A stretch of 62,972 nucleotides of DNA from an uncultured Gammaproteobacteria bacterium (GTDB taxonomy: Bacteria; Pseudomonadota; Gammaproteobacteria; SZUA-229), in contig CAVYHW010000111.1 of NCBI GenBank assembly GCA_963768215.1, positions 1 through 62,972 of the forward strand, written 5' to 3'. The position numbers and the translations under genes are program-made. Position 1 is the first letter of the stretch. Every line of letters starts with the position of its first letter. This document shows, one piece after another, positions 18,498-49,982 of this stretch. The notes beneath the pieces were generated by a model. The model was not told the origin of the DNA. It searched no databases and saw only the letters and a program-made list of their open reading frames with translations.

Positions 18498-19358
18498 ATG
18501 AAACAGAAACTGCTTGCATCACTATTTTATATTCTTCCGCATCATGCTATTAGCTGGGTAATGTTCAAAACTGCCCGCATTCGCTGGACACCGCTGAAAA
18601 ACTTCATCATCCGAATCTATACCGATTTAAACCCGGTAAAAATGCATGAAGCTATTGAAGAAGACATGTTTGCTTATGATTCTCTTAATGCATTTTTTAC
18701 ACGTGCATTAAAGGCAGAATGCCGCCCTTTTGATAACAACGAAAAAAACTGGTTATGCCCGGTTGATGGTTTTGTGAGCCAGGCCCGGTCGATCAAAGAT
18801 GGCCGTATTTTTCAGGCAAAAAACCATGACTACAGCCTGCTGGAACTGGTCGGTGGCGATAAAAAACTGCAAGACATATTCAGCAATGGGCAGTTTGCCA
18901 CATTGTATTTATCACCCAGAGATTATCACCGTATCCATATGCCCACTACCGGCAGGCTGCAACAAATGTTATATATTCCCGGCAGGCTATTTAGCGTTGC
19001 GCCATTTACGGTAAACCATATTCCGCGACTATTTGCGCGTAATGAACGTTGTGTCTGTTATTTTGAAACCGAGCAAGGACCGATGGCGATGATACTGGTT
19101 GGCGCAATAAATGTTTCTGCCATAGAAACAGTCTGGCATGGATTAATCACGGGTGAAGCTAAAAAAATCAAAAATTTTGATTACAGTGATAAAAGTATTG
19201 AGCTTAAACGTGGTGAAGAGATGGGACGGTTTAACCTGGGTTCAACCGTGATCGTTTTAACCACTGATCAAATGAAAATAGATGAAAAAATTATTGCTGA
19301 TACCGAAATAAAACTTGGTCAGTGTCTGGCATTGCCTAACTCAACAATTACGGACTGA
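18498..19358 (+). CDS. psd: Phosphatidylserine decarboxylase proenzyme
   Basis: NAFFTRALK, YLSPRDYHRIHMP, RFNLGSTVI autocleavage motif. Confidence 0.95.
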   Translation: MKQKLLASLFYILPHHAISWVMFKTARIRWTPLKNFIIRIYTDLNPVKMHEAIEEDMFAYDSLNAFFTRALKAECRPFDNNEKNWLCPVDGFVSQARSIKDGRIFQAKNHDYSLLELVGGDKKLQDIFSNGQFATLYLSPRDYHRIHMPTTGRLQQMLYIPGRLFSVAPFTVNHIPRLFARNERCVCYFETEQGPMAMILVGAINVSAIETVWHGLITGEAKKIKNFDYSDKSIELKRGEEMGRFNLGSTVIVLTTDQMKIDEKIIADTEIKLGQCLALPNSTITD

Positions 19359-19508: not shown

Positions 19509-21047
19509 TTATACACCACTTTCTGCTTTAACAGTTTTCAGAGCATCAATAGCTGTGTCCTGCTGAGCATTCATATTTTCCTGTTGTGTTTGCTCACCGG
19601 ATGGTTTGGTGTAACGATCATTCATGGTCTGAATAAACGCACAGGAGTCTGCTGTTACCTGGGCCAGCGCTCTTTTTGAGCGCATTGACCAGCCAACAGG
19701 CATCGGCCTGAACATACTTCGTAATGGCTGTGTATTTTTAAGGAATGCCTTTCTTATATTGCCAGCAAGAATTTTGCCTTCACGGTATTCTCCTGCAATA
19801 TTTTTATCAATCTTAATTTTTGTATCTATTTTATTTGCAATTATTTTTGCCGAAAAAGCGCGTATGAAAAAATGCACTACGGTAAAGCCAAGCACAGTAA
19901 GACCTAATTTAACTGAAGAGAGTATATTGTCATTAGCAAAATCGTATGAAAACAATGCCCACGAATCAAACCATTGGCTAAGTACTAATAAAACAATCAC
20001 AAATAATGCAATGGCCGATGCATCCAGAACCAGCACCATTTTCAACCATTTCATCATTGCAGCTTTAACAACCGGTACTACCTGGCTTTCTATATCGCTG
20101 GCAATAGTCTGCAAGGCGCCTACTATTCGATAAGAGCGCTCTACTTCCACCTGATGAATACGCTCAAAAATTGCAGCCCTGTCCTGGGCGCATTTATTTT
20201 CAAAACGCTGACGCACCGCTTCATCTGCAATAGGTACAGCAACATCCAGGTTATAAATAGAATAAAAACGCCCGGCGGTCAGGCCTTTTGCAGCAAGCGC
20301 ACGTTGCCATGAAGCGACTACGGCCTCGGGATTGTCTTCCTGTGCCGCTGTATCAATCTGATTAAGAATATACAGGAACTTTTCTGAATCACTGCGGGTG
20401 ATGGTATTGCCAACCAGGTGGTCCAGAGTGTCCTGCATTGCACCCGGTTCAGGATGCCTGGCATCAAAAAATACCAGCACTAAATCTGACAGATCAACAA
20501 TATGATCGGTCAAGCGTAAGATTGCGTTGCGTTGTTCATCAGCGTCAAAACCGGGAGAATCAATAAGAATTTTTCCACTTAATTTATCTGAGTGTGATGT
20601 TTTCATCTGCAGATAAGCATCGATGCGCCGCCCTTCTCCACTGGCGACTTTATCTATTTCATCGCTCATCTGGTAAAACGGAAATCTTGGATCTGAGTTT
20701 AGTGCAACGCCAGGGAGGACGCGATGGTCCTTACTGCTGCTGTAAGTAACGACAGTAAACTTGTCATCCACCGCCTGGTTTCCGGTAAGCTGTAATTGAT
20801 CACCCAGAAAGTTATTGATAAATGAAGACTTGCCTGCGGAAAAGGTACCCAGCACAGACACCAGGGGCCACCACGGAATACTTGTTGCGTAGGATTCACT
20901 GCTATCCAGCAAACCCATTTTATAAGCAACGGTATCGAGTTTTTTAAATCGTGAAACTACGTCAACCAATAATGGATTCTCATTATTTAAATGGGTTTCC
21001 AGTTTGTTTAAACGTTCTCGAATGGATTTATCCGGACGATTTAACAT
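19509..21047 (-). CDS. Dynamin/EHD-like P-loop NTPase with two C-terminal TM segments
   Basis: G1 GTFSAGKSS, G3 LIDSPG, G4-like LNQID; hydrophobic segments VLVLDASAIALFVIVLLVL and LGLTVLGFTVVHFFI. Confidence 0.85.
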   Translation of the reverse strand: MLNRPDKSIRERLNKLETHLNNENPLLVDVVSRFKKLDTVAYKMGLLDSSESYATSIPWWPLVSVLGTFSAGKSSFINNFLGDQLQLTGNQAVDDKFTVVTYSSSKDHRVLPGVALNSDPRFPFYQMSDEIDKVASGEGRRIDAYLQMKTSHSDKLSGKILIDSPGFDADEQRNAILRLTDHIVDLSDLVLVFFDARHPEPGAMQDTLDHLVGNTITRSDSEKFLYILNQIDTAAQEDNPEAVVASWQRALAAKGLTAGRFYSIYNLDVAVPIADEAVRQRFENKCAQDRAAIFERIHQVEVERSYRIVGALQTIASDIESQVVPVVKAAMMKWLKMVLVLDASAIALFVIVLLVLSQWFDSWALFSYDFANDNILSSVKLGLTVLGFTVVHFFIRAFSAKIIANKIDTKIKIDKNIAGEYREGKILAGNIRKAFLKNTQPLRSMFRPMPVGWSMRSKRALAQVTADSCAFIQTMNDRYTKPSGEQTQQENMNAQQDTAIDALKTVKAESGV

Positions 21048-21087
21048 TTCAGTATATTTTCCTTCCTGTTAGGAATTAATTAACTAC

Positions 21088-22152
21088 TTATTTAAGTGGT
21101 ACCGTACTCGGCGGAATTGTCACTTTGTTCTGAGAAGCAGCGTCCTGTTGCGGCGCCTGTCTTGCTCTATTAACCGGTTGTGACTGCCCAGATGACTGCA
21201 TGGGTGGCCGTGCGTAGTTCTGATAGCCCCCCTGGTTCGGATTATAAGACGGCCAAACAGGTTGTGGCGGTGTAGGTGGTGGAACATTTGTATCTGAGCT
21301 AAACGGCATTATATCATTCATCATACCGAATGGCCCGCTGGAAACCGTGCGGTTCATACCATGCATGTCACGTTGCATGCCATATACAGAGCGATTCATG
21401 CTGCCAATATTACGTGTCATGCTCTGAATATTATTACTCATAGGCGTCAGGCTATTCATTTGACCAGACATGGAAACGATTTCAGTGGTCATGCCATCAA
21501 TATTACCTGTCATATTATCAATACTGCCTGTCATCGCTTTCAGGTCTTTTGTCATACGAGGCATCGAATCAGACACGATTACAGCCATACGTGTTACTGA
21601 TTGTGACAACGTAGAAATATCATGCGTTAACCGATAAATCAGGAAGAAGCCGTATCCAGCTAGTAATACAAAAGCAAATAATGAAGGATAAACCACCATT
21701 TCCCACCGTTTGGCGCTACTGTCAAAAGTATTCGCTAATCGTTCTAGCGGGTCAGTCGGCTTATCACTGACATAAGATTCCTCCAGTATTTTTTTCTGGG
21801 CACGCTGTTTTGCTTCATGAGCGCGTGCTTTTAGCTCTTCAACACTTTGTTTTGTTTTGATCGAATCATCAGCTGTTTTTTTGCCCTCTGCACTTATTTT
21901 TTTTGCCGCCGCTATCATGTCAGAGTCTTTCGAAGCTCCAGCTTTCTCGATTGCAGCGATTCCATCCTTTGTAACCGTACCTTTAGTAATTTCTGCAGAT
22001 TTAGCCGCAGGTTTTGCGGTCGGCTTAGCTGCAGGTTTTGCAGTTGATTGCTTTATTCCAGCACTGCTCTCAGACGTATTTTTTGCTGCGGAAGTTTTAC
22101 CCGTAGACTGTGGTTTATCAGTTTTTTTATCGTCTGATTTACTATCCGTCAT
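21088..22152 (-). CDS. Single-TM protein with Met-rich heptad coiled coil and Pro/Gln-rich tail
   Basis: Lys/Ala-rich N-terminus (AKPAAKPTAKPAAK), TM YPSLFAFVLLAGYGFFLIY, then Met roughly every 7 residues. Confidence 0.8.
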   Translation of the reverse strand: MTDSKSDDKKTDKPQSTGKTSAAKNTSESSAGIKQSTAKPAAKPTAKPAAKSAEITKGTVTKDGIAAIEKAGASKDSDMIAAAKKISAEGKKTADDSIKTKQSVEELKARAHEAKQRAQKKILEESYVSDKPTDPLERLANTFDSSAKRWEMVVYPSLFAFVLLAGYGFFLIYRLTHDISTLSQSVTRMAVIVSDSMPRMTKDLKAMTGSIDNMTGNIDGMTTEIVSMSGQMNSLTPMSNNIQSMTRNIGSMNRSVYGMQRDMHGMNRTVSSGPFGMMNDIMPFSSDTNVPPPTPPQPVWPSYNPNQGGYQNYARPPMQSSGQSQPVNRARQAPQQDAASQNKVTIPPSTVPLK

Positions 22153-22153
22153 C

Positions 22154-22744
22154 TCAAAAATCGCCTTCGGCGCCTCGGTTCATAATATCTAAAATAATTT
22201 CCTTAACACCTTCTGCCTCTTCCTTTAGTGCAGCTGGCAATGGTTTCCCGCCATATATCATGGCGTCCATATTTAACGAATATAACCAGAGTTTGCCCTG
22301 TTTATCTTCAACCATACTAATACGACAGGGTAAAAAAGCTGAATATGCATCACTGTAATCCAGCATCTGTAATGCGGTCAGTGCATTACAAAACATATAA
22401 ATTTTAAGATAGCGTGACTTTTCACCTGACATTGCTTCTATTTGGTCTGATAAAGGAAGTTCACCAACATTTTTAATGTTATGCTCATTGGCTACAAAAC
22501 GCATAGTTTCTTCCACATCTTTTACCGTCAGGTCGTTGTTTACCGCAACTTTCCAGACCATTGCTTCTGCCGCGTTACCGGTTTCAAGCACCTTCTCCAT
22601 CATTTCGCTATAAACATCAATCGCTTTTTCATCAAAAGATTCAAGCGCCTGTTTCATCGGGGCCATAGTAACGGCTGCATATATTGCAATAACAATGACA
22701 ATAAAACCTACTAAAGCAAATAAATTACGTAGTGCGTAAAACAT
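22154..22744 (-). CDS. DUF302-family membrane-anchored protein
   Basis: N-terminal TM; IYMFCNA...AFLPCRISMVED conserved Cys pair. Confidence 0.8.
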   Translation of the reverse strand: MFYALRNLFALVGFIVIVIAIYAAVTMAPMKQALESFDEKAIDVYSEMMEKVLETGNAAEAMVWKVAVNNDLTVKDVEETMRFVANEHNIKNVGELPLSDQIEAMSGEKSRYLKIYMFCNALTALQMLDYSDAYSAFLPCRISMVEDKQGKLWLYSLNMDAMIYGGKPLPAALKEEAEGVKEIILDIMNRGAEGDF

Positions 22745-22777
22745 ATATAAATACTCTAAAGTTTATGCCAAATAAGA

Positions 22778-23896
22778 TTATGACTGGGCTGAATCAAGTA
22801 ACCGCTGTAGTTCAATCGCTTTAGATTTATCCAGATGTCGTAACAAGCCCATCAAACTTCTTGCTCGATAAATTTGTCCTTTGTTTACAAGTATAGCTGC
22901 CGCTTCAAAATAAGCAGAAGCAGCCTGCTCGTTTTTACCCTGATTGAAATAAACATTACCAAGCTCGCCATAAGCATCAAAATTATTTTTTGTATTCTCA
23001 ATGACCTGCTGATAACTTTGTTCTGATAACTCGTAATTACGCTGATAAAAATACTTTCTTGCACTGATCCACTTTTCTCTTACAGCACCGGTTGGTTGAG
23101 ATACATCGATGAACTCCCCATGCTCATCTACATTGTTCAAGTGTTTTTCAACTTCAGCTGGAATGAATGTTTCATTTATATTGCCTGGTCCCACTGCCAC
23201 AACTGCAGTATTATCCAAACCTGTTTTATTCACAGTGAATAAATGTGGTGTCTTTATAACTGAGCTGCCTGCCTGGTTATGTGTTAGTTCAGTGTTACTT
23301 ATCTGTTTGAGTTCTTCTTTCGAATCAACAACACCGGCAGTGCCCTGCTTAACTGCTGTTTCATGTTGGGACGCTACATACCGGGGGGCTTCATTCTGAT
23401 TATAACTGCTGTTCGCCATCTTTTGTTCAGGCACGGGTTGCTCAGACATAGGTGGCTCTATCACAGCCTGTTCAGGCACAGGCTGTGGCTCAACAGGCTT
23501 AGTTACCACTTCAGCACTTGCCACAGCAGTGTTATTTTCAACGGCCACTTCCTCAACTGCCGCTTGCTCAACAGCCACTTCCTCAACAGCCCTGGATTCA
23601 GACTGTATTGATTCCGCCTGATAAGCACTATTAATATCAGTAGTTGTCACAACTGCTGTTTCTGAGCTGGAGGATTGCTGAACTGGTTTATGTTCCTGGC
23701 TCAATTTGGCCTGTTTGGCTTTTACTGCATCAACGAACTCTTTTACCTCCACAAACTCATCTGAGAGATAAGCTACCGCCTTTCCTGCCGGTGTATCTTC
23801 ACCCATCAAGTTACCCCAGAACATATAAGCATAAATTACAGCCACAATTAGCAGGATAAATAAAGAATGACTTAACAACCAACGTAGAATTTTCAT
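22778..23896 (-). CDS. Membrane-anchored protein with disordered linker and C-terminal TPR repeats
   Basis: N-terminal TM, Glu/Gln/Pro-rich linker, DAYGELGNVYFNQGKNEQAASAYFEA TPR consensus. Confidence 0.8.
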   Translation of the reverse strand: MKILRWLLSHSLFILLIVAVIYAYMFWGNLMGEDTPAGKAVAYLSDEFVEVKEFVDAVKAKQAKLSQEHKPVQQSSSSETAVVTTTDINSAYQAESIQSESRAVEEVAVEQAAVEEVAVENNTAVASAEVVTKPVEPQPVPEQAVIEPPMSEQPVPEQKMANSSYNQNEAPRYVASQHETAVKQGTAGVVDSKEELKQISNTELTHNQAGSSVIKTPHLFTVNKTGLDNTAVVAVGPGNINETFIPAEVEKHLNNVDEHGEFIDVSQPTGAVREKWISARKYFYQRNYELSEQSYQQVIENTKNNFDAYGELGNVYFNQGKNEQAASAYFEAAAILVNKGQIYRARSLMGLLRHLDKSKAIELQRLLDSAQS

Positions 23897-23962
23897 AAAA
23901 ACCTCTAATTTTGTATCATTTTCTTCTACAGGACACCCATATAATCACCAGCTAATACAGGC

Positions 23963-24592
23963 TTAGTCCAGTAAAGCGGCCAGTTTTTTCATTTCTTTTG
24001 AAGCCTTGCCCATGGGGTCAAGTTCAAAAACACCAAGACCTTCACTAAACGAACGACGATAAGCAGTGCGTTGATATAAACGAATATCCAGCGCCTTTAT
24101 TCCCTGCATCATTTGCCATGCCTGTTCTGCTTCATCCGTTTCACGCACACCGATATGCGTATCTGCACGATTAATAAAACCTAAAACCTCTGGTTTGTTA
24201 TCGTTATTTACAGAGTTTTTAATAATTTTTAAAAAACGTTGTGTCGACCAGATATCAGCCTGGCTGGGCTGAACTGGAATTAGTACACGGTCTGCCAGGT
24301 AAATCGCTTTTTCCATCGCTGGCATATTAGTAGCACTCATATCGACGATAATGGGTTGTTTACGTTTTTTATCTTTTGCCAGGGCTTCAAGTTCATCCAG
24401 GTCCGTTGAAACTTCAAATGTCGGCTCATATCCGTCTTCTATGCGAACTTCATTAACATCCAGCAGGGTGCATTGCGGATCAAGGTCAAATGCTTTTACT
24501 CCAGTTTTATCATGCGCTAACCAAACCGCCAGATTAAACGCAACTGTACTCTTACCTGTACCACCCTTTAAATTTCCGACGACTGTTAACAT
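23963..24592 (-). CDS. Orphan ParA/MinD-family ATPase (short, no N-terminal HTH)
   Basis: Deviant Walker A GNLKGGTGKST, DLDPQ, IIVD, ADRVLIPVQPS; 209 aa; no parB nearby. Confidence 0.9.
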   Translation of the reverse strand: MLTVVGNLKGGTGKSTVAFNLAVWLAHDKTGVKAFDLDPQCTLLDVNEVRIEDGYEPTFEVSTDLDELEALAKDKKRKQPIIVDMSATNMPAMEKAIYLADRVLIPVQPSQADIWSTQRFLKIIKNSVNNDNKPEVLGFINRADTHIGVRETDEAEQAWQMMQGIKALDIRLYQRTAYRRSFSEGLGVFELDPMGKASKEMKKLAALLD

Positions 24593-24699
24593 AAAAACTT
24601 ACCCACTAACTGAGAGTTTATAACCTGTTTCTTACCCATATTATTTAACCCCAATCAAACTTACAAGCCCAAACATACATGCCCAAACATACGGCTCTG

Positions 24700-25494
24700 T
24701 TAATTATTACCCGCTAATTGACCTTTCTGATGCTCATTCGGTTGCTGCACTGGTTCCAACGAAGTATCAAATAATGTGTAATTTTCAGGTACAGTAAACA
24801 ATTTCCTGTCCACTTTACCTACTTTAATATTTTGCAGCTCATCCACCACATTATCTTGATATTCCTGTTTAATAACAATATCCAGCTCGTTATCATACCA
24901 TTGTGTACCCTGTAGCCGTTCACCTGAAGCACTAAATGCAATCATAGTCAGCTTTCTTACCTTGCGGCCATTCATTTCCTGATCTTCCTTTATAAAGACA
25001 CTTAATCCCGTACCATCAGAATTTTCCTGTCTCAAGATATTTTTATACTTAACATCTATCCATTGAAATACATGGAAGTCATTGCCATTGCTGTTAAGTG
25101 TAATCAACCATTTCTCGGCATCTCTACCGTTCATTTTTGTTTTCTTAAGAAAAACACATTCAGCATTAACAAACTGTTTACAGGGGTCTGTTGTTATATT
25201 ATTTTTGCTGTCCGCGATTATTTTCTCACTTTCCGGCATTTCCTTTTCCAGATACAGTTTATTCTCATTATCTAACCAGATAATCTTGTTATTTTTATTA
25301 TCAAAGATCTGTGCCATTGGCACACCATCTTCGGTGTATTCAAACCTTACATTACCATCTAACCACTGCATCCTGGCATAACTGACATTCTCACCACGAA
25401 TCTGCACTGCATCTGCGGTAAATGACGCCGCATGAAGCACTTCAATACAAGCTGAAAACAACAGTATACAAATTGTCAGAAAAGGTTTCATCAT
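24700..25494 (-). CDS. Secreted LolA-like/DUF4412-type beta-sheet protein
   Basis: Signal peptide, FTADAVQ...VRFEY, duplicated MNGR..KW-type motif, DRKLFTVPENY C-terminal motif. Confidence 0.65.
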   Translation of the reverse strand: MMKPFLTICILLFSACIEVLHAASFTADAVQIRGENVSYARMQWLDGNVRFEYTEDGVPMAQIFDNKNNKIIWLDNENKLYLEKEMPESEKIIADSKNNITTDPCKQFVNAECVFLKKTKMNGRDAEKWLITLNSNGNDFHVFQWIDVKYKNILRQENSDGTGLSVFIKEDQEMNGRKVRKLTMIAFSASGERLQGTQWYDNELDIVIKQEYQDNVVDELQNIKVGKVDRKLFTVPENYTLFDTSLEPVQQPNEHQKGQLAGNN

Positions 25495-25505
25495 GTTTTA
25501 GATAG

Positions 25506-25537
25506 AAAAAGGCGGCGCCGGATGAACGGCACCGCCC
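25506..25537 (-). terminator. Rho-independent terminator after the sgp-like gene
   Basis: Minus strand GGCGGTGCCG-ttcatc-CGGCGCCGCC-TTTTT, about 14 nt after the stop. Confidence 0.8.
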
Positions 25538-25550
25538 ATTGTAGCAACTC

Positions 25551-26012
25551 TTATCGTGCTGCAGGTGCTGCAGGTGCTGCTGATGCTGCTGGTGCTGGCG
25601 CATAACCTGGACCAGGACCATAATATGGACGACCATAATAACCACGGTTATAACGATTGTTATTGTCCCAACGGTTGCTATTATCCCAACGGTTGCTATT
25701 GTTCCAGTTATTATTACCACGGTATGAGTTACGGCCGTCACCACGGCCACGGCCACTTCCTCTACCACTCATGCCAAAGTTAAAGTTACCGTCTACGTCA
25801 CCAGAACCATCACCAGAACCGTCGCCATAACCGGAACCATCATTACGCCAGTCATTACGCCAGTCATTGTTCCAGTCATTACTGTTATTCCAGTTATTTC
25901 TACTGTTATTGTTATTGTCCCATGGCATATCGAAGTCTGCGCTTGCCGACAAAGGTGCTATTGCAAAACCTAATGCTGAAGTTAAAACAGCAATTTTTAT
26001 CATTGATTTCAT
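25551..26012 (-). CDS. Sulfur globule envelope protein, SgpA/SgpB (CV1/CV2)-like
   Basis: Sec signal ending SASA; GDGSGDVDGNFNFGMSGRGSGRGRG core resembles, from memory, the [21 protein letters not shown] core of Chromatiaceae SgpA; Gly/Tyr/Pro block and Ala/Pro tail; soeABC in the same window. Confidence 0.72.
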   Translation of the reverse strand: MKSMIKIAVLTSALGFAIAPLSASADFDMPWDNNNNSRNNWNNSNDWNNDWRNDWRNDGSGYGDGSGDGSGDVDGNFNFGMSGRGSGRGRGDGRNSYRGNNNWNNSNRWDNSNRWDNNNRYNRGYYGRPYYGPGPGYAPAPAASAAPAAPAAR

Positions 26013-26228
26013 TATGATGTTACCTATCTACACCCCTCGTTAATATATGGCATTGAATCGAGGGAGATACCCAACACCAGGTTACTGTGAAGTCATCAAC
26101 TTTACAGCGATGAACCTCACACTATACGCCAGTTAATAAATAGAAGCTATTTCTTAATACAGCGCTTTTACTCGCTTCCATTTACTTATATTTAAACGGA
26201 ATAAAATTTATTTTTTGCCTTCTGTGGT

Positions 26229-26783
26229 TTACCAGTCACCCAGACCAATGTCCCAGGGTGACCATGGTGTCACAACTGGCGCATCATATAAAGGGTCCAT
26301 ATAATCCATTCCGTATGAAGGATAACCCAAAGTGCCTGACCCGGGTGAAGCTGACCCAGGTGAACCTGATTGCATTTGTTGCGGCGCGTATTTTCGTGGT
26401 GCAACCCCGTAGTAGCGGTTATTTTCTGGCATAACCTGGTGCTGTGACTGTTGCTGCTTCAATGACTCAAGAAACTCATCTGTAACAAAACGATTATTCT
26501 GGTAAGTTCTATTTTGAGTTGAGCGGGGCTGATTATGTCTGTTTTCAGTAGCTCCCTGGTACTGCGACCCCTGATATCGCTGGTTTTCATATTCCATCGG
26601 TTGCTCAAAACCGGGATGGTTTTCAGGCGTTTGAGGTATTGCCCAGGGGTTATACTGTCCACCAGTCAGTTGCAATGAATACGGCTGAGTATTACTGTCT
26701 GCCAGCGCTGTTAAAAAAATCATCATAAGCCAACTAAACACCCAGCTTAAGACGATTTTTTTGTAGATTATACGACCTTGCAT
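26229..26783 (-). CDS. Secreted low-complexity Gln/Pro/Tyr-rich protein
   Basis: Signal-like N-terminus ending TALA; YNPWAIP; C-terminal PWSPWDIGLGDW. Confidence 0.7.
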   Translation of the reverse strand: MQGRIIYKKIVLSWVFSWLMMIFLTALADSNTQPYSLQLTGGQYNPWAIPQTPENHPGFEQPMEYENQRYQGSQYQGATENRHNQPRSTQNRTYQNNRFVTDEFLESLKQQQSQHQVMPENNRYYGVAPRKYAPQQMQSGSPGSASPGSGTLGYPSYGMDYMDPLYDAPVVTPWSPWDIGLGDW

Positions 26784-26873
26784 TAGTCACACCCAGAAAT
26801 ATCAAATTACAATTTATACAGTATATTAATAAATCATAATATTGGCAACATAATGCAGTATTCAACAGGTTCC

Positions 26874-27458
26874 TCAGTATGCAGCTCCTTGAGTTACAGG
26901 ATTGTAGCGTACAGACTCGTTTCCGGGCCAGCTCATAACAGGACGTCTTTTGTATCCATAGTAATTATTTGATGACGACTTAGATGGCATTGCCTGATAA
27001 GGCTTCTTCTCAGTAGGCGGCTCTATAAAACGATAGCCACTATCAGGCCGCCACCGCGCTGGAGATTTAGCCTGGCTCGGCCATGGAATGTCCGGGCTAA
27101 ATTTATCCATCGGAATGTCAGGTGAATCAGTCCTGCTTGCATACCCGTCCCAATCACGATCAAAAGTAGAATCTTTAAAAGTAAAATCACTTAATGCAGA
27201 TGACATATAAGGCCCCGGTGGTGGCAGCGGTATTCTTTCCCTGTTTATCTGCCTGCTTTGTGGCCATCGTGGAAAACTAAATGCTCGCTGTTTATCTTCA
27301 CTAGCTGAAGTTACGGCTGCCTCTGCCTCATTTGCAGTCACTTCAGCATCTGAAGCCTGGGCAGGCATAGGCATCATCAATAAAACCAGAAAACCTGCTA
27401 GAAAACCCACCAGATAATTTAAATTTGTGAAGATATTGAACTCTTTTTTATAAAACAT
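26874..27458 (-). CDS. Secreted Pro-rich protein
   Basis: Signal-like N-terminus ending PAQA; FPRWP, PLPPPGPYMSSALS, IPWP, MSWP. Confidence 0.7.
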   Translation of the reverse strand: MFYKKEFNIFTNLNYLVGFLAGFLVLLMMPMPAQASDAEVTANEAEAAVTSASEDKQRAFSFPRWPQSRQINRERIPLPPPGPYMSSALSDFTFKDSTFDRDWDGYASRTDSPDIPMDKFSPDIPWPSQAKSPARWRPDSGYRFIEPPTEKKPYQAMPSKSSSNNYYGYKRRPVMSWPGNESVRYNPVTQGAAY

Positions 27459-27471
27459 TTATGGGTCCTCT

Positions 27472-30400
27472 TTAAACATCACCTTCATTTTTCAGTCGAA
27501 TTCCTCGATGCTTACCCTTACCTGGAGAATATTTTTTCGATGGTGCTTTCTTTATTACTGCCTTTTTAACCGCTGGCGCCTTCGTTGACTCTTCCTTAGC
27601 AGCCTCCTTTTTAGACTTTTCTTTTGCCTTTGCTTCTTTGGCTGCTGCCTCTTTTGCTGCTGCTTGTTTGGTTGCGGCCTCTTTAGCTGCGGCCTCTTTA
27701 GCTGTTGCTTTTTTGGCTGCTGCTTGTTTGGCTGCTGCTTGTTTGGCTGCTGCTTCTTTGGCTGCTGCTTCTTTGGCTGCTGCTTCTTTGGCTGCTGCTT
27801 CTTTGGCTGCTGCTTCTTTGGCTGCTGCTTGTTTGGCTGCTGCTTCTTTGGCTGCTGCTTGTTTGGCTGCTGCTTTTTTGGCTGCTGCTTCTTTGGCTGC
27901 TGCTTGTTTGGCTGCTGCTTCTTTGGCTGCTGCTTCTTTGGCTGCTGCTTCTTTGGCTGCTGCTTCTTTGGCTGCTGCTTGTTTGGCTGCTGCTTGTTTG
28001 GCTGCTGCTTGTTTGGCTGCTGCTTTTTTGGCTGCTGCTTCTTTGGCTGCTGCTTCTTTGGCTGCTGCTTCTTTGGTGTTCGCTTTTGATACAACCTTTT
28101 TCTTAGCAACTTTCTTTGCTATAACTTTCTTTTTTGGAGCCGGTGCTGCTTTCTTCTTTACTGTAGCTTTTTTAGTAGCCGCCCCTTCCTCCGTTGTCCT
28201 GTTAGCAGATGTCCCGGGGTCTGACGGTGCCGCAGGAGATGTTGATGGCGACTGTGATGATGGAGCTGATGATGTCGGAGGTGTCGATGGAGCCGCCGGT
28301 GGTGCTGATGGTGGTGGCCCAGAATCATTTGATCCAAACATACCAGCAACCATACCAAACAGCATTCGTAATACATTAAATAACATTTGGCCGATAACAA
28401 CTATCCAGCCAACTAAACCAACGATGAAACCATATAGTTTCATCCATAGTGGTGTTTTATATTCATCAACAGCAGCAGCTGCATTCGCCTGCTCATACTC
28501 TAGACCTTCAACTTCAGCAAACCTTGAACTAATCGACCTTTCACACGAATCTGTGGTTTCATAATAGAAATTTTCACGGCAGCTAATACAGCCCAGGGGA
28601 ATAACGATTACTGCCATTATAGTGCCAACCCCGGCACCCCATAAAAGGCTGATGGCCATACCATTAAAAATAGGATCGTCAAGAATAGCAAAAGCACCAG
28701 CCATCAATGTCAGCGAGGTAATAAAAATCGGACGCATACGAATTTCGGCGCCATTGACTGCAGCTTCTTTCACCGGAATGCCTTTTGCCACTTCGATTTT
28801 TACAAACTCAACGATCAGAATAGACTGGCGCACAATAATACCGCCCAGTGCAATCATGCCGATCATTGATGTTGCGGTAAATTCAGCACCGTGAATCCAG
28901 TGGCCGGGCACAATACCAATCATGGTAAGTGGAATTGGCGACATGATCAGACCGGCCAGAGCAAAATCACGGAACTCCCATACAATCAAACCGTAAATCA
29001 GCACCAGCGCCGCCATGAACGCAAGCCCCATGTCACGGAAGGTTTCGAAGGTTACCGTCCATTCACCTGTCCATTCAAAACCGGAGTGTAGATCACTGTT
29101 CGGTGGACCAATAAGGTTCATCGGCATGCCACCCATAATGACACCATCCGGCGTGGTGTATTCATCGGTAAATGCTTCAACGTTGAACATACCGTAAATC
29201 GGCGCACCCAGACGGCCTTCCATTTCACCGACGACAAATTCAACATCACGCAGGTCTTTGTGCCAGATAATAGGTTCTTCGTCTTCAAGAATAAAACGGC
29301 CGAGCTCACCCAGCGGAACAATGCTGCCATCAGACGTCACCATCGGCAGGTTACTCAGCTGGTTGACCTGTGAACGCGTTGCCATTGGCACCTGGATCAC
29401 AATATAGGTCGGTTCAATGACCGAGGCACGTTTCACGTCACCCAGTTTGAAGCCGCCCATCGCCATCGCCAGGGTACCGTTGATGCTATCGACAGAAACG
29501 CCGCGACGTATTGCCTTTTCCCTATTAACTTCAAAACGCCAGTGCTGAGAAGGTTCAGTCATGTAGTTATCAACATCCACTACACCTCCGGCCTGCTCAA
29601 AAAATTCTGTCATTTTCGCTGCAACTTCACGCCTTGTCTCTGCGTCAGGGCCATGAATTTCAGCAACCACTGTCTGCAGCACCGGTGGGCCAGGTGGCAT
29701 TTCAACAACAGCAATACGTGCACCCGCCTTATCAGCAATCGGCTTTAACATTTTGCGCGCCGCCTCGGCAATCTGATGACTGCTCTTTTCACGTTCATCT
29801 TTACCTTTCAGCATGACCAGTAAATCACCATGCCAGGGTTGCTGCCTGAGATAATAGTGCCTGACCATGCCGTTAAAATTAAATGGCTGTGCAGTTCCTG
29901 CATAACTTTGTACCGCTTCCACTTCAGGCAACTGATTAATCGTCGTTGCCAGCTCATTAGCCAGATTGGCAGTAACAGGCATTGCGGTTCCTTCCGGCAT
30001 ATTAATAATCACACTGAATTCAGGCTTGTTATCAAAAGGTAGCATTTTCACTGCAACCCATTGTGTCGGGTAAAACAGCAACATGGTCATCGCTGTAATT
30101 GCGATAATGGAAATCAGAAATATAATACCCAGCTTGCGACTATTCACCAGTGGCATAATGAGTGGACGATACAGGGCAGCGACAAATTTACGCGTTTTTT
30201 CTTCTCGTCTCTCAGCTTTCTCGAGAGCTTTTAGCTGCGGACGCATGCGAACAGCAAACCACGGGGTAAAGATAAAAGCGGCTATCAACGAGAAAAACAT
30301 GGCAGATGCGCCCATCACCGGAATCGGGCGCATATAAGGCCCCATCATACCACTCACCCAGCCCATGGGCAGCAATGCCGCAATAATGGTAAAGGTAGCC

Positions 30401-31839
30401 AGAATGGTCGGATTACCCACCTCGCGAACAGCATCAACTGCGTCTGCCAGTGTGGTTCGACCTTTTATTAACCAGTGCCGGAAGATATTTTCCACCACCA
30501 CTGTTGCATCATCTACCAGAATACCGATAGAGAAAATCAATGCAAACATACTCACACGGTCAATGGTGTAATCCACTACCCATGCCCACCAGATAGTAAT
30601 CAGAATAACCACCGGAATGACCGTCACCACCACAAAAGCAGCACGGAAGCCTAGACCGATTAAACACAGAATCGCCACAGCTGCAGTCGCCTCGAACATC
30701 GCCCTGAGCAATTCATTTACTTTATCGTTAGCGGTTCTGCCGTAGTCACGGGTAATTTCCACATGGACATTATCAGGAATGATCGTGCCTTTTAGCTCCT
30801 CCAGTTTCTCCAGAATTGCTTTGGATACTGTTACACCGTTAGAGCCTTCTTTTTTAGCAATGGCAACAGTAATGGCTGGATCACCAGCAGGCGTCTCCTT
30901 ACCTTCATAAGCCGGTCCTGCATAAAAAGAAGATAACTGTTTGGCATCTTCAGGACCATGGAACACTTCCGCGACATCACGCATGAAAATTGGTGAGCCC
31001 TTATTCATCCCCACAACCAGTCGTTCAACGTCAGAGACTGTGCTCAAAAACGAACCCGAATAAACCGTAAAAGAAGTACTGCCTGCCTCGACAGCACCCA
31101 CATTTTTCTGCGTGTTTGCGGCTGTAACAGCACCAGCCACCTGCTGCAGACTTAGCCCGTAACCGGACAGCCGCTCGGGTAACACTTCAACACGAATCTG
31201 GTCAGCACGCCCGGCGACCACAAAACCTTTACCGGTATTTTTAACCTGACCCAACTCCTGCAACACATCGTTACCGAGAATACGCAAGGTGGCATCATCT
31301 ACTTCTTTAGACCATAAGGTAACGGAAACAGTAGGCACATCGTCAATGGCAACCGGTTTAACCAGCGGGCGCAAAACATCCGGCGGGATCATATCCATGT
31401 TAGAACTGATTTTGTCGGTAATCTTAACGATGGATTCTCCCAGCTCCTCTCCAACGTAGAACTGGACGGTAACAATAGTGTTGCCACGTTGTGTGGAGGA
31501 AAAAGTATGGCGAACACCCGGTATCTCATCCATCAGCCTTTCCAGCGGATCAGTCACCAGGCTTTCCACCTGCTCAGCAGACGTGCCAGGATAAGACACG
31601 AAGATATCAATCATGGGCACAGAAATCTGCGGATCTTCCTGCCGCGGTGTGAAGATCAAACCGCTGATACCAATAAGCAGTGTTGCTATCAGCAGCATGG
31701 GTGTAACCGGTGAATTAATAAAGGTTTTTGCTATGTTACCAGCAAGGCCGAGCTCTTCACCGCCAACCGTTGCAACTGGAGGTGTATCACAGCTCAGTTC
31801 TTCATTTTTATCTTTATCTTTATCCAGTTCATTTGTCAT
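27472..31839 (-). CDS. RND permease (AcrB/CusA superfamily) with extra hydrophobic segment and long K(E/Q/K)AAA tail
   Basis: PRQEDPQISVP, GILVDDATVVVENI, RQSILIVEF, RMRPIFITSL; about 360-aa C-terminal extension. Confidence 0.93.
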   Translation of the reverse strand: MTNELDKDKDKNEELSCDTPPVATVGGEELGLAGNIAKTFINSPVTPMLLIATLLIGISGLIFTPRQEDPQISVPMIDIFVSYPGTSAEQVESLVTDPLERLMDEIPGVRHTFSSTQRGNTIVTVQFYVGEELGESIVKITDKISSNMDMIPPDVLRPLVKPVAIDDVPTVSVTLWSKEVDDATLRILGNDVLQELGQVKNTGKGFVVAGRADQIRVEVLPERLSGYGLSLQQVAGAVTAANTQKNVGAVEAGSTSFTVYSGSFLSTVSDVERLVVGMNKGSPIFMRDVAEVFHGPEDAKQLSSFYAGPAYEGKETPAGDPAITVAIAKKEGSNGVTVSKAILEKLEELKGTIIPDNVHVEITRDYGRTANDKVNELLRAMFEATAAVAILCLIGLGFRAAFVVVTVIPVVILITIWWAWVVDYTIDRVSMFALIFSIGILVDDATVVVENIFRHWLIKGRTTLADAVDAVREVGNPTILATFTIIAALLPMGWVSGMMGPYMRPIPVMGASAMFFSLIAAFIFTPWFAVRMRPQLKALEKAERREEKTRKFVAALYRPLIMPLVNSRKLGIIFLISIIAITAMTMLLFYPTQWVAVKMLPFDNKPEFSVIINMPEGTAMPVTANLANELATTINQLPEVEAVQSYAGTAQPFNFNGMVRHYYLRQQPWHGDLLVMLKGKDEREKSSHQIAEAARKMLKPIADKAGARIAVVEMPPGPPVLQTVVAEIHGPDAETRREVAAKMTEFFEQAGGVVDVDNYMTEPSQHWRFEVNREKAIRRGVSVDSINGTLAMAMGGFKLGDVKRASVIEPTYIVIQVPMATRSQVNQLSNLPMVTSDGSIVPLGELGRFILEDEEPIIWHKDLRDVEFVVGEMEGRLGAPIYGMFNVEAFTDEYTTPDGVIMGGMPMNLIGPPNSDLHSGFEWTGEWTVTFETFRDMGLAFMAALVLIYGLIVWEFRDFALAGLIMSPIPLTMIGIVPGHWIHGAEFTATSMIGMIALGGIIVRQSILIVEFVKIEVAKGIPVKEAAVNGAEIRMRPIFITSLTLMAGAFAILDDPIFNGMAISLLWGAGVGTIMAVIVIPLGCISCRENFYYETTDSCERSISSRFAEVEGLEYEQANAAAAVDEYKTPLWMKLYGFIVGLVGWIVVIGQMLFNVLRMLFGMVAGMFGSNDSGPPPSAPPAAPSTPPTSSAPSSQSPSTSPAAPSDPGTSANRTTEEGAATKKATVKKKAAPAPKKKVIAKKVAKKKVVSKANTKEAAAKEAAAKEAAAKKAAAKQAAAKQAAAKQAAAKEAAAKEAAAKEAAAKEAAAKQAAAKEAAAKKAAAKQAAAKEAAAKQAAAKEAAAKEAAAKEAAAKEAAAKEAAAKQAAAKQAAAKKATAKEAAAKEAATKQAAAKEAAAKEAKAKEKSKKEAAKEESTKAPAVKKAVIKKAPSKKYSPGKGKHRGIRLKNEGDV
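27625..28074 (-). repeat. 15-bp coding tandem repeat, ~30 units, K(E/Q/K)AAA
   Basis: Plus-strand unit ttggctgctgctt(c/g/t)t; 24 near-perfect units at 27715-28074 plus 6 degenerate ones. Confidence 0.97.
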
Positions 31840-32054
31840 TTTCTAGCAATCACTCTGTAGTTCAGGCCGTTATTTACCACTCATTATTTATCTCTGCATC
31901 GAGATAAGGGAGTGATAACACACAGGGCAGCCCGTTAATATCAGTTAACCACCTGATTTAATTGTTTATCCAGGTTATTATTTTTTCAGGCCTCTGATAC
32001 CTCTGATAATATATAAATCTTAAAGGCACCTGAAGCGATGATGTTAACCTGTTA

Positions 32055-33212
32055 TTAGTTGCCCCATGGCATGGGTGGTTTTTCTTCATCGGAATTTGTC
32101 AAAATCCTTTCTCCCGGTTCAAGCCCGGAAAGCACGATTACAGTGTCATCACCGATTTCTATACCGGTACGAATCAATCGCAACTTAGGAACATTGTCCT
32201 CGTCAAGCACCCGCACTGAAGGCAAACTACCGCGCTGACTAATAGCAGACTTCGGTATCACCGGCAGCGCTCGAGTTGGTGAATTGATATCAGGAATCAT
32301 GACTTCCGCATACATGCCCGCACCACCGGGAACACCTTCAGGCAGATCAAATTTTACGGTTACCGTATGCTGCTTGTTATCAGCTTCTGGAGCAATCTGC
32401 GCCACGCGTGCATTGACCTGTGTATTGCCAACATCCAGCCTTGCAGGAACGACCATGCCTTTTGCTAAACCCGGCATCAATCGCGCAGGCACGTCCACCT
32501 TTATGCGTAGAAATTTTGAATATGAAAAGACAATCAAAGGTTGCCCAGGCTGTACGGTATCACCTATTTCAACCATTTTTTCCATGATAACGCCGTCAAA
32601 AGGTGCAATCGCTTCAGTATCACGTAATTTAGCATTGATAGCACGTAAGCCTGATTCGGCCTCGGTGATGCGTGAACGCGCCGTAGCAACCTGTGTACCC
32701 TGGGTGGCCAGATCAGCATGTCGCTCAATCCCTTTATTACTACCTGACATGGTATCGCTATCAAAGAAACCATCAAACATGGTAGGCATTGCCATACCGC
32801 CCATTGGACGCGGATTATAAACTCGCGGATTCCATAGTTCACGATTGTACTGGACCTGTGCATTCTGCGCCCCACTTTGCGCCGAAGCCAATTGAGCTTC
32901 AGCAGCTACTTTTTTCGCCCGCAGATCATCGTCATTAATTTTTACCAGCAAAGTACCAGCAGTAAACTGATCTCCCTCTTCACCAGCAATACTGACAACT
33001 CGTCCCGGTATTTGCGCCGCGAGGGTAACTTCTTTAAGCGGGATAACACTGCCGCCCAGGATGACATAACCACCATGCGGAGCAACACTAACGGTAATGA
33101 CATTATCTGCCTGCGCCTGTGCAGACCACCCGGTGAGAAGTGTTAGTGAGATAGATAGGGGGAATTTGATTCGACTAAATATTGACATTCTCAAAGTTAC
33201 CTTCCAGTTCAT
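32055..33212 (-). CDS. RND periplasmic adaptor (membrane fusion protein)
   Basis: VTLAAQIPGRVVSIAGEEGD and APFDGVIMEKMVEIGDTVQPGQPL lipoyl halves, alpha hairpin, VLSGLEPGERI. Confidence 0.92.
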   Translation of the reverse strand: MNWKVTLRMSIFSRIKFPLSISLTLLTGWSAQAQADNVITVSVAPHGGYVILGGSVIPLKEVTLAAQIPGRVVSIAGEEGDQFTAGTLLVKINDDDLRAKKVAAEAQLASAQSGAQNAQVQYNRELWNPRVYNPRPMGGMAMPTMFDGFFDSDTMSGSNKGIERHADLATQGTQVATARSRITEAESGLRAINAKLRDTEAIAPFDGVIMEKMVEIGDTVQPGQPLIVFSYSKFLRIKVDVPARLMPGLAKGMVVPARLDVGNTQVNARVAQIAPEADNKQHTVTVKFDLPEGVPGGAGMYAEVMIPDINSPTRALPVIPKSAISQRGSLPSVRVLDEDNVPKLRLIRTGIEIGDDTVIVLSGLEPGERILTNSDEEKPPMPWGN

Positions 33213-33419: not shown

Positions 33420-34439
33420 TTATGAGTTGCTCCAGTCAAAGGCCAGCACCTGGTCGATACTAATGCTGCCTGTTAATACCATCAATAATCTATCCAGTCC
33501 CATAGCTACACCAGAACAATCAGGCAAACCAGAACTTAATGCAGCAATAAAATTTTCATCAATACGGGCCGCTTCTTTACCGACTTTTTTTCGCTCGTGA
33601 TTTTCTTTTTGAAACCGCTGCAATTGCTCCTTTGCATCCGTTAACTCATTGAAACCATTGGCCAGTTCTATTTCACCAAAAAACAGTTCAAATCGCCTGG
33701 CAACAGGAACCTGCTGTTCATTTGCTGCAACTTTCGCCAGGGCGCACTGCGATGCAGGGTAGTCGAACAAAAAGGTGAAGCCCTGTTTGTTAAACGCAGG
33801 CAATACTAACTGTGTAAGCAACCAGTCCAGCCAGTCATCCACTTCATCATTTGCACCTGAGTTCAGCCCCATGCCCTGGGGTATTTCAATATTATGTTTT
33901 CTGGCAAGCTGATAACATTGTTTTGAATTTGCCTGGTGAGGATCAAAACCGGCAAAGTTTTCAAACGCTTGCTGGTAACTTAAAGATTCAAACTGAGGGT
34001 TATCAGCTGAAAACAGTTTTGAAAAATCACCCTTTGATAAGTGACACAGGTTTTCGACCAGCTCAGCTACCTCTTCCATCAATTGCATCATACCGTAACC
34101 AGGCCGATACCACTCAAGCAGAGTAAATTCCGGATTATGATTTGGGCCCAGCTCATCATCTCGAAAAGCCTTGCAAATTTGATAAATTGGCTGACTGCAA
34201 TCGGCCAACAAGCGCTTCATGGCGTATTCAGGGGATGTATTTAAATAACATATCTGGTCACGAAAACGCGACTGCAAACTGTCCAGGTGGGGATCTGTTG
34301 TCGAATAACTTGACAACAAAGGGGTTTCAACTTCAAGAACATCGCGCGCATCAAAAAAAGCCCGGATGTTTTTCAACATAAGGGCCCTTTCTAATAATAT
34401 TTCATAACTGACCTTCGGCCGCCAGCGCTCTTTAGCCAT
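33420..34439 (-). CDS. epmA: EF-P lysine aminoacylase (GenX/PoxA)
   Basis: LEVETP, YLNTSPEYAMKRLL, HNPEFTLLEWYR, ELANGFNEL, CSGVAMGLDRL; next to efp; ATG at 34439 preferred. Confidence 0.95.
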   Translation of the reverse strand: MAKERWRPKVSYEILLERALMLKNIRAFFDARDVLEVETPLLSSYSTTDPHLDSLQSRFRDQICYLNTSPEYAMKRLLADCSQPIYQICKAFRDDELGPNHNPEFTLLEWYRPGYGMMQLMEEVAELVENLCHLSKGDFSKLFSADNPQFESLSYQQAFENFAGFDPHQANSKQCYQLARKHNIEIPQGMGLNSGANDEVDDWLDWLLTQLVLPAFNKQGFTFLFDYPASQCALAKVAANEQQVPVARRFELFFGEIELANGFNELTDAKEQLQRFQKENHERKKVGKEAARIDENFIAALSSGLPDCSGVAMGLDRLLMVLTGSISIDQVLAFDWSNS

Positions 34440-34462
34440 TAGCAAAAACGTAAAAAAGCATT

Positions 34463-34547
34463 TTGTCCACAGATGAACACAGATGAACACGGATAAAAAT
34501 AATCACGATTTAAAAATCTGTGTTCATCTGTGTTCATCTGTGGATAA
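34463..34547. repeat. Periodic palindromic intergenic element (CACAGATGAA family)
   Basis: tccacagatgaacacagatgaacacggat ... atctgtgttcatctgtgttcatctgtgga. Confidence 0.85.
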
Positions 34548-36579: not shown

Positions 36580-36684
36580 GCTACAATTAAGGGCATCGGT
36601 AAAAAATTACATATAAACGCCAAGTTATTGTTTTTTATAACGATAAAGAACAGCCAAGTTAGCAGCGGAAAACAACAAAAAACA

Positions 36685-49961: not shown

Positions 49962-49982
49962 AATATTTTCTCTTTGAAAAAC

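Follow-up and report, generated by a model that had tools for sequence, protein, structure and literature searches.

A conserved RND-ParA-dynamin gene cluster carrying a sulfur globule protein family gene, a candidate globule-serving module of sulfur-storing Gammaproteobacteria

Introduction

To our knowledge, coat proteins are the only components of sulfur globules known so far. It is a long-standing question by which means these inclusions, which have a central place in chemosynthetic symbioses, are nucleated and filled, and how they are placed and emptied. Here we describe a cluster of 11 genes at positions 19509-33212 of a 62,972-nucleotide stretch of DNA from an uncultured gammaproteobacterium (contig CAVYHW010000111.1 of assembly GCA_963768215.1), which is referred to as the window in its full length. 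The cluster combines genes for a pump of the resistance-nodulation-division (RND) type, an orphan ParA-type ATPase and a dynamin-like NTPase with a gene of the sulfur globule protein (Sgp) family. Judged by sequence comparison, it probably represents one conserved envelope-spanning module that serves Sgp-coated periplasmic sulfur globules in sulfur-storing Gammaproteobacteria.

Several described systems resemble parts of this cluster. The partners of small orphan ParA-type ATPases such as McdA use short basic peptides, carried by flexible segments, to stimulate the ATPase. Among the RND proteins, HpnN works by hydrophobic hand-over within the envelope. Guanine-specific dynamins carry the sequence N/T-K-x-D at the G4 position, and EHD proteins use ATP. 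As to the globules themselves, excerpts of one study state that in purple sulfur bacteria they can account for as much as a third of the dry mass of the cell, and they describe the sgpD gene of Allochromatium vinosum as adjoining genes that encode a hydrophobic/amphiphilic exporter, known to us by this description only, and a regulator (PMC10386293).

Results

The cluster comprises 11 open reading frames (ORFs), all located on the minus strand (as are all cluster features given below) with intergenic gaps of 1-216 bp, and it is flanked by psd (18498-19358, plus strand) and by a gene for an EpmA-type class II synthetase paralog (33420-34490, minus strand). The ORF positions bear out the first-pass annotation, which had described a run of 11 minus-strand genes with psd and epmA on either side, and all of its domain calls for the cluster genes were reproduced by profile searches or, in the case of the LolA-like protein, by structure prediction. 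In the direction of transcription, the genes encode a membrane fusion protein (MFP), the RND permease, two secreted low-complexity proteins (designated sec1 and sec2), the Sgp-like protein, a secreted LolA-like protein, the ParA-type ATPase, a protein with a transmembrane (TM) segment and TPRs, a DUF302 protein, a TM protein with Met-containing heptads and the dynamin-like NTPase.

Conservation was assessed in a sample of 400 gammaproteobacterial genomes that represents the families evenly, and 102 dynamin-centred loci from outside the genus (22 plus 80 from named contigs) were compared by tblastn and all-against-all clustering, the counts of which refer to 103 sources. The dynamin gene is present in 24 of 24 congeners; all 11 genes are colinear in the two congeners that could be read through, and a third congener agrees up to the end of its contig. 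Outside the genus, dynamin orthologs sharing ~45-58% identity occur in 83 of the 400 genomes and in 66 of 321 genera. The seven families that adjoin the dynamin gene most often all belong to the cluster itself, namely RND (59 of the 103 sources), ParA (52), MFP (47), the Met-heptad protein (45), the LolA-like protein (36), the TPR protein (28) and DUF302 (23), all of which are lower bounds, as many loci end at a contig edge. The genes for MFP and/or RND are found no more than 9 kb from the dynamin gene in 12 of the 22 non-genus loci and, together with most of the 80 further loci, which likewise keep cluster members near the dynamin gene, this answers the question raised in the first-pass annotation as to whether synteny is conserved: it is, far beyond the genus. 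The genes kept with the dynamin gene in these loci are MFP-RND and those for the LolA-like, ParA, TPR, DUF302 and Met-heptad proteins. Two architectures recur. In the first, the genes are colinear as in the window, and in the second, the dynamin gene is oriented divergently from an MFP-RND...ParA operon, as seen in Candidatus Thiodiazotropha, Sedimenticola and metagenome-assembled genomes (MAGs) labelled Chromatiaceae. Of ten genomes with an isolated dynamin gene, three have the other cluster genes at a different site. Carriers include Sedimenticola, with S. hydrogenitrophicus as a named example, Candidatus Thiodiazotropha and the symbionts of tubeworms and Solemya, and the closest named relatives are MAGs labelled Thiotrichaceae. 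Allochromatium vinosum was not among the 120 named dynamin orthologs listed (query labelled 'Chromatiaceae'). The genes for NadA, NrtR, HDOD and GGDEF-GAF proteins, which come next in frequency beside the dynamin gene, and those for TrkA, ROK and DUF3108 proteins were considered as further conserved neighbours and judged to be lineage-specific flanks.

Thus, the genes of the cluster travel together, and since the synteny recurs outside the genus, their adjacency is more than chance. One could object that an ordinary multidrug pump, envelope genes and a plasmid-type ParA merely happen to be neighbours and have no joint function, in keeping with internal sites that resemble promoters and terminators and with the separate location of the dynamin gene in some genomes. 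The best promoter-like site of the cluster (26848-26820) indeed precedes sec2, and a terminator-like hairpin with 11 pairs, nine of them GC, and a T-run (25510-25537) follows directly after the Sgp-like gene. However, this explanation is hardly credible, because many families show the genes in each other's vicinity again, in two rearranged architectures, and because a motif in the pump tail co-varies with ParA, as detailed below. Protein identities of 45-65% also disfavour a single, recently transferred island.

The Sgp-family gene is a fixed member of the cluster. In most taxa, the gap between the RND and LolA-like genes measures 1-3.7 kb and is occupied by two or three ORFs for secreted low-complexity proteins. 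In the window, these are sec1 (26874-27458), which is rich in Pro/Ser/Trp and has an N-terminal hydrophobic segment, the Pro/Gln/Tyr-rich sec2 (26229-26783) and the Asn/Trp/Gly-rich Sgp-like protein (25551-26012). No family in Pfam or NCBIfam was matched by sec1 and sec2, and similar Pro-rich secreted ORFs are found in the gap in other taxa. In 18 of 56 loci, which is a floor as the screen of the gap ORFs used composition thresholds, the last ORF of the gap, just upstream of the LolA-like gene, encodes a secreted protein rich in Gly, Asn, Tyr and Trp. These 18 ORFs share a common plan, in which a signal peptide and a W-G-P-W start are combined with a central acidic/Gly motif that S-G-R-G repeats follow, with G-Y/G-P repeats and with an Ala/Pro end, and 14 of them match the Pfam family SGP (E<=0.01, best 1e-15). 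A hidden Markov model (HMM) of 11 syntenic orthologs from outside the genus finds the window gene among the 10,396 frames of its own genome with an E-value of 1.9e-20, albeit with a large compositional-bias term (41.8 bits), and also recovers the SGP genes of this genome that pass the Pfam cut-off (contigs C76 and C124). The Sgp assignment of the first-pass annotation therefore has two sides: the window copy, which has an N-terminal hydrophobic segment (residues 3-21) and contains more Asn/Trp/Arg than Gly/Tyr, stays below the cut-off of the SGP profile, whereas most of its syntenic orthologs match and their own profile recovers the window copy. Tandem arrays of three to four SGP-family genes exist away from the cluster (G004:C6:452825-456288 and G000:C124:1295-4000), and such off-cluster arrays probably contain the main coat-protein genes. 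In a sister genus (G355), a secreted protein of 314 aa, the middle part of which is Lys/Glu-rich and looks like a coiled coil and which recalls SgpD by description only, is encoded between the RND and Sgp-like genes (L124:7715-8659).

The distribution across genomes was compared with sulfur traits. SGP was searched for in 401 genomes, and the dynamin, dsrB and LolA-like families in 400 (G272 was left out), which are the basis of the cross-tabulations; the dynamin tallies, and no other result, take in the unpublished genomes G063, G165, G332 and G320, all with the dynamin gene and without SGP and dsrB matches. Pfam SGP is matched in 51 of the 401 genomes. The dynamin gene is present in 45 of these, and the dynamin or the LolA-like gene in 50; the remaining genome (G087) has an RND ortholog of 56% identity that carries the tail, and an SGP match lies 2.3 kb downstream of it. 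Dynamin and SGP occur together in 45 genomes, dynamin alone in 38, SGP alone in six and neither in 311. The corresponding numbers for dynamin and dsrB are 58 (both), 25 (dynamin only), 64 (dsrB only) and 253 (neither). The LolA-like family was detected in 42 genomes, 35 of which have dsrB; among the seven others, three are only 72-81% complete, and SoxB scored above the cut-off in all five that were tested. Conversely, three genomes with dsrB and no SGP match (G174, G189 and G192) have no RND ortholog (best identities 24-40%). One of them, G192, is 99% complete and represents a sister genus in the window's family that is devoid of SGP, dynamin, LolA-like and RND orthologs at the same time. For the window's own genome, an assembly of 2.27 Mb that is 81% complete, no dsrB match was obtained, and the near-complete congeners possess dsrAB in four of four cases and three to eight SGP matches each. 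In sum, the RND-centred cluster tracks sgp closely, the dynamin family does so less, and the module is almost confined to sgp-bearing genomes. As to whether the orthologs are common in organisms without globules, a doubt already raised in the first-pass annotation, components are found in 50 of the 51 SGP-positive genomes and the RND gene in the 51st, but the dynamin gene taken alone is unspecific (38 of 83 carriers are without an SGP match).

The RND permease (27472-31839, 1455 aa; ACR_tran 460 bits) has an extra hydrophobic segment after TM12, followed by an Ala/Lys-rich tail that makes up the last 298 residues and gives an HC2/histone-H1-like match. Part of the tail consists of pentapeptide repeats encoded by a 15-bp tandem repeat with 29.7 copies (27631-28076); long ORFs overlapping this region on either strand (27555-28109, minus; 27638-28564, plus) are by-products of the repeat rather than genes. 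Long basic tails, rich in Lys/Ala/Pro and comprising 110-310 residues, are present in 50 of 53 complete RND orthologs. Close to the very end of the protein, the sequence RGIRLK (residues 1445-1450; 27490-27507) conforms to a motif, R-G-I-(R/Q/K)-L-(K/R), which is located 6-29 residues before the C-terminus in 47 of the 53 orthologs. Its R, G, I and L are invariant across the 47 aligned tails, the remainder of which is unalignable.

Presence of this motif co-varies with a ParA gene in the same locus: among the 53 RND orthologs, 45 have both, four have neither, two have only the motif and two only ParA. The two loci with the motif alone are both cut nearby, and the loci with ParA alone encode a tail-less RND protein in one case and a deviant tail end in the other. 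On the RND tree, in which the placement of several rows is unsafe as they are N-terminally cut (the locus starts inside the gene), the four loci lacking both form two separate pairs inside the clade that contains the window's lineage (fork supports 94-100), which suggests two joint losses of motif and ParA rather than one. In the same tree, the rows L044, L047, L051 and L052 fall into another clade than the RND protein of the window (and L046), even though the dynamins of these loci are 83-84% identical to the window's. This odd placement may be an artefact, some of the rows being N-terminally cut, or may reflect exchange of pump genes. The ParA protein itself (23963-24592, 209 aa) scores above the cut-off for CbiA (50 bits) and below it for the NCBIfam equivalog ParA_partition, NF041546 (134.7 bits; cut-off 180). 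It has a deviant Walker A motif, KGGTGKS, which reads KGGxGKS in 50 of 52 orthologs, and the solved structures nearest to its profile are ParF (4dzz), ParA (5u1g) and McdA (6noo). A ParB-like gene was not found in the cluster. Since the tail motif co-varies with ParA, we infer that the pump could be the cargo of ParA. A positioning role of the ATPase would gain indirect support from this co-variation.

The remaining parts of the transport machinery provide hints at the cargo. The MFP, the periplasmic adaptor of the pump (32055-33212), matches TIGR01730 with 165.6 bits (cut-off 94.9), its ortholog family being the one present in 47 of the 103 sources. To judge from the sequence, there is a Met/Gly/Pro-rich insert in its predicted hairpin region (residues ~120-165), at the place where adaptors usually touch the outer-membrane channel. 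The DD pair in TM4 and the R in TM10 of the permease, which we take to be equivalent to the proton-relay residues of AcrB, are kept in all of the 47 orthologs that comprise 1250 aa or more. Its best NCBIfam matches are generic multidrug models, with scores far below the cut-off (420 versus 1250 bits). No outer-membrane factor was seen among the conserved neighbours in the 103 sources, the rest of the genome not having been searched. A second MFP-RND pair, a paralog with 39% identity to the cluster RND, is encoded at G000:C118:790-4933, and a similar paralog (~40%) exists in G189, G378, G042, G087, G132 and G192.

Two proteins with carrier folds accompany the pump. The AlphaFold2 model of the secreted LolA-like protein (24700-25494; pLDDT 87.3) yields Foldseek matches solely within the LolA superfamily (RseB, LolA3, LolA, LolB and EPDR1), with a probability of 1.0 yet low TM-scores of 0.2-0.37. 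Cysteines 105 and 113 are invariant in 29 orthologs. Sequence searches matched no model of the LolA clan and gave only DUF4412 (16.6 bits, below the cut-off of 21.6), and the family profile had no match among PDB sequences. Just upstream of the MFP gene, 22 loci (L024, L036, L038, L057, L063-L065, L069, L070, L073, L074, L076, L078, L083, L086, L088, L090, L091, L094, L103, L106 and L123; e.g. L094:9391-9786) encode a cytoplasmic protein of 131 aa without a Pfam match, for which an SCP2 fold is predicted (pLDDT 94; TM-score 0.77 to 2cx7) and whose nearest relatives include UbiJ-SCP2. Its family profile returned only noise from the PDB sequences, and the gene was not found in the window's genome. 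As the predicted LolA and SCP2 folds, both of them folds of carriers for hydrophobic ligands, flank the pump, one on each side, these models suggest a hydrophobic cargo, and the pairing of an RND protein with a LolA-fold carrier suggests, by analogy, that a hydrophobic molecule is passed on within the envelope.

Such features could also belong to a system for efflux of, or tolerance to, sulfur species of hydrophobic nature (e.g. polysulfides, S8 or organic persulfides) that protects the inner membrane of sulfur oxidizers, in which case the link to globules would be indirect and the Sgp-like gene just a co-regulated neighbour. The intact proton-relay motif of the MFP-RND pump, the two carriers, the restriction to genomes with dsrB or SoxB and the RND orthologs of G033, which occur without SGP matches, all agree with this scenario. 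However, it leaves the coupling of ParA to the pump-tail motif, the fixed Sgp-family gene and the missing RND ortholog in the dsrB-positive, SGP-negative genomes G174, G189 and G192 unexplained, and no outer-membrane channel that could expel the cargo from the cell is among the conserved neighbours; we therefore consider it unlikely. Alternatively, the genes might transport lipids or isoprenoids, such as hopanoids or quinones, and remodel membranes in the manner of HpnN and Lol, their link to sulfur being an incidental result of shared ancestry. This would fit the SCP2 fold with its UbiJ-SCP2 relatives, the LolA fold and the 21 genomes that have the dynamin family and neither SGP nor dsrB matches, and association counts that ignore phylogeny leave room for it. 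We rate it as quite improbable, because the Sgp-family gene is a conserved internal member, components are present in 50 of the 51 SGP-positive genomes, the sister genus without SGP also lacks every component tested, and the SCP2-like gene is absent from the window's genome.

The dynamin-like NTPase (19509-21047, 512 aa) matches Dynamin_N with 55.9 bits (cut-off 27) and has a hydrophobic hairpin at residues ~323-393. The P-loop is conserved in 88 of 89 family members, and the DSPG and LNQxD motifs are present in all 89. The G4-like motif accordingly reads N-Q-x-D instead of N/T-K-x-D in every member, and the solved sequences nearest to the family are EHD4 and EHD2. Considering this motif and the kinship to EHD proteins, the enzyme may use ATP. 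Dynamins are also listed among genes of Thiomargarita in excerpts of a preprint, in another context (10.1101/2022.04.11.487978).

Three anchored proteins are encoded between ParA and the dynamin-like protein. The TM-TPR protein (22778-23896; 28 of 103 sources) has an N-terminal anchor, a disordered middle part and C-terminal TPRs (TPR_16/17/1 at residues 279-334). The DUF302 protein (22154-22744; PF03625, 39.9 bits, cut-off 23; 23 of 103 sources) is anchored N-terminally; DUF302 genes have been noted within sox clusters lacking soxCD, according to excerpts of PMC5037610. The Met-heptad protein (21088-22152; 45 of 103 sources) spans the membrane once and gave only weak coiled-coil matches; an alignment of 30 orthologs delimits a conserved core composed of the TM segment and the repeats, and most orthologs end with FMPW.

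Outside the cluster, the window contains genes for a molybdenum oxidoreductase, an FeS subunit and a membrane subunit (48984-53647). The first-pass annotation had named them soeABC in support of a sulfur-oxidizing host, and the gene architecture fits SoeABC, although the assignment is one of architecture, as no SoeABC-specific model exists. A 613-aa ORF without a match in Pfam or NCBIfam (36628-38469, plus strand) adjoins the gene of a GGDEF/EAL protein (38510-40597), and a polar landmark protein of the FimV/HubP family with 1053 aa is encoded at 3094-6255 (minus strand).

Discussion

We propose that the cluster probably is one conserved module in the service of Sgp-coated periplasmic globules. 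The first-pass annotation had likened it to a kit for organelle assembly, and this idea gains from the conservation and the sgp linkage seen in synteny and distribution, but the dynamin-like protein, which was counted among its parts, is not specific for sgp-bearing genomes. A description of this gene combination was not found in the literature searched in full text, in line with the earlier statement that none was known.

Several observations weigh against our proposal. The association counts ignore shared ancestry, and part of the SGP signal stems from the in-cluster gene itself. Among the 83 dynamin carriers, 38 have no SGP match, and 21 of these 38 have no dsrB match either. Nine of 31 strong carriers of the LolA-like gene are likewise without an SGP match (E<=1e-4). 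The dsrB-positive genome G033 has two tail-less RND orthologs (C7:43725-46946 and C1:179383-182565, with 60% and 56% identity, respectively) and neither an SGP match nor a LolA-like gene. Nor is the module universal, since SUP05 stores sulfur without dynamin, as far as excerpts of PMC6509183 tell. The Sgp-like protein of the window reaches 18.7 bits with Pfam SGP (PF17228; 19 bits in the genome search), the cut-off being 26.7, and is one of five paralogs, the better-scoring ones being encoded on C76 and C124, away from the cluster. In A. vinosum, Alvin_2516, the gene downstream of sgpD, is not sulfide-regulated according to excerpts of PMC10386293. Location of the RND tail on the cytoplasmic side is an assumption, and the one extra hydrophobic segment after TM12 bears on it. 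Finally, the transcript data derive from one study of relatives that are 90-97% alike, consist of contigs only and may include DNA. With this proviso, contigs from RNA libraries cover eight of the 11 genes and bridge the dynamin/Met-heptad and ParA/LolA-like junctions, and in two RNA-library runs the word depth of the stretch peaks at the Sgp-like gene, which is no more than a hint; no sequencing run holds at least half of the sampled words of the stretch, and the uncovered parts (e.g. 20170-20803 and 30948-31581) are uninformative.

With regard to mechanism, our confidence in each single step is lower than that in the link to globules. The MFP-RND pump, operating without an outer-membrane channel, would transfer a hydrophobic cargo from the inner membrane to the periplasm, which might be zero-valent sulfur or polysulfane, or else an organic or lipid constituent of globules. 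The secreted LolA-fold carrier would receive this cargo from the pump, and the Sgp-like protein together with the two Pro-rich secreted proteins would build or modify the coat. The anchored TPR, DUF302 and Met-heptad proteins might organize the periplasmic side. In the cytoplasm, the RGIRLK-type peptide at the end of the 110-310-residue pump tail would engage the orphan ParA, which could space the pumps, and hence the sites of globule formation, along the nucleoid, much as carboxysomes are spaced by McdA. Around the growing globules, the inner membrane might be shaped by the membrane-anchored dynamin-like NTPase. Roles in loading, nucleation and membrane remodelling are inferred here. That all these steps combine into a dedicated trans-envelope machine, which builds globules at defined sites by RND-driven loading of zero-valent sulfur or an organic carrier of it, via the LolA-like protein, into a compartment coated by Sgp, by ParA-dependent positioning of the pump with capture at its C-terminal RGIRLK peptide, and by EHD/dynamin-like shaping of the membrane, is a tentative and somewhat doubtful idea.

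Nonetheless, the cluster provides a short list of candidate genes for globule assembly, and because it is present in culturable strains and well-studied symbionts, the question is open to knockouts, tagging and biochemistry. If such a machine exists, it would be the first case in which a ParA system positions a transporter of the membrane and thereby also an inclusion outside the cytoplasm, and a ParA-linked RND tail would widen the range of cargo known for ParA-type positioning.

Comparison with known systems

Like the globule proteins SgpA-D of A. vinosum, the Sgp-family proteins of the cluster are secreted, of low complexity and rich in Gly and aromatic residues, and the SGP profile is matched by 14 of the 18 syntenic orthologs. 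The window copy departs from SgpA-D in being Asn/Trp-rich and below the Pfam cut-off. According to excerpts of PMC10386293, the sgp genes of A. vinosum form separate transcription units without assembly genes, whereas here a Sgp-family gene resides inside an 11-gene cluster.

The magnetosome island likewise is a compact set that joins transporters with a TPR protein, an NTPase for positioning and membrane shapers for a single inclusion, and the model of the magnetosome protein MamA even matches the TPR part of the window protein, but weakly (E 3e-4; 20 bits versus a cut-off of 200). There are no homologous core genes, the actin-like MamK takes the place that ParA has here, and the inclusion considered here is outside the cytoplasm. 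The resemblance is one in concept only.

With the RND proteins of the HpnN type, which act without an outer-membrane channel, and with the Lol pathway, the cluster shares the combination of an RND protein and a periplasmic carrier with a LolA fold. It differs in that those systems have no long ParA-linked tail and in that the LolA-like protein matches no sequence model of LolA. The dynamin-like NTPase resembles bacterial dynamin-like proteins and EHD ATPases: it scores above the cut-off for Dynamin_N, EHD4 and EHD2 are the closest solved sequences, and its hydrophobic hairpin could serve to anchor it in the membrane. Unlike known dynamins and EHD proteins, the window family is short (~500 aa), carries N-Q-x-D and is tied to an RND/ParA cluster.

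Finally, the ATPase agrees with McdA of the McdA/McdB system and ParF of the ParF/ParG system in being a small orphan ParA with a deviant Walker A motif, for which ParF, ParA and McdA are the nearest solved proteins. The pump tail is a basic, flexible segment with a conserved Arg-containing peptide, which we take to resemble the ATPase-stimulating peptides of ParA partners. In the known systems this part is played by a soluble adaptor or a DNA-binding ParB, whereas here the presumed partner is the tail of an RND pump, and the cargo, unlike that of McdA and ParF, would be periplasmic.

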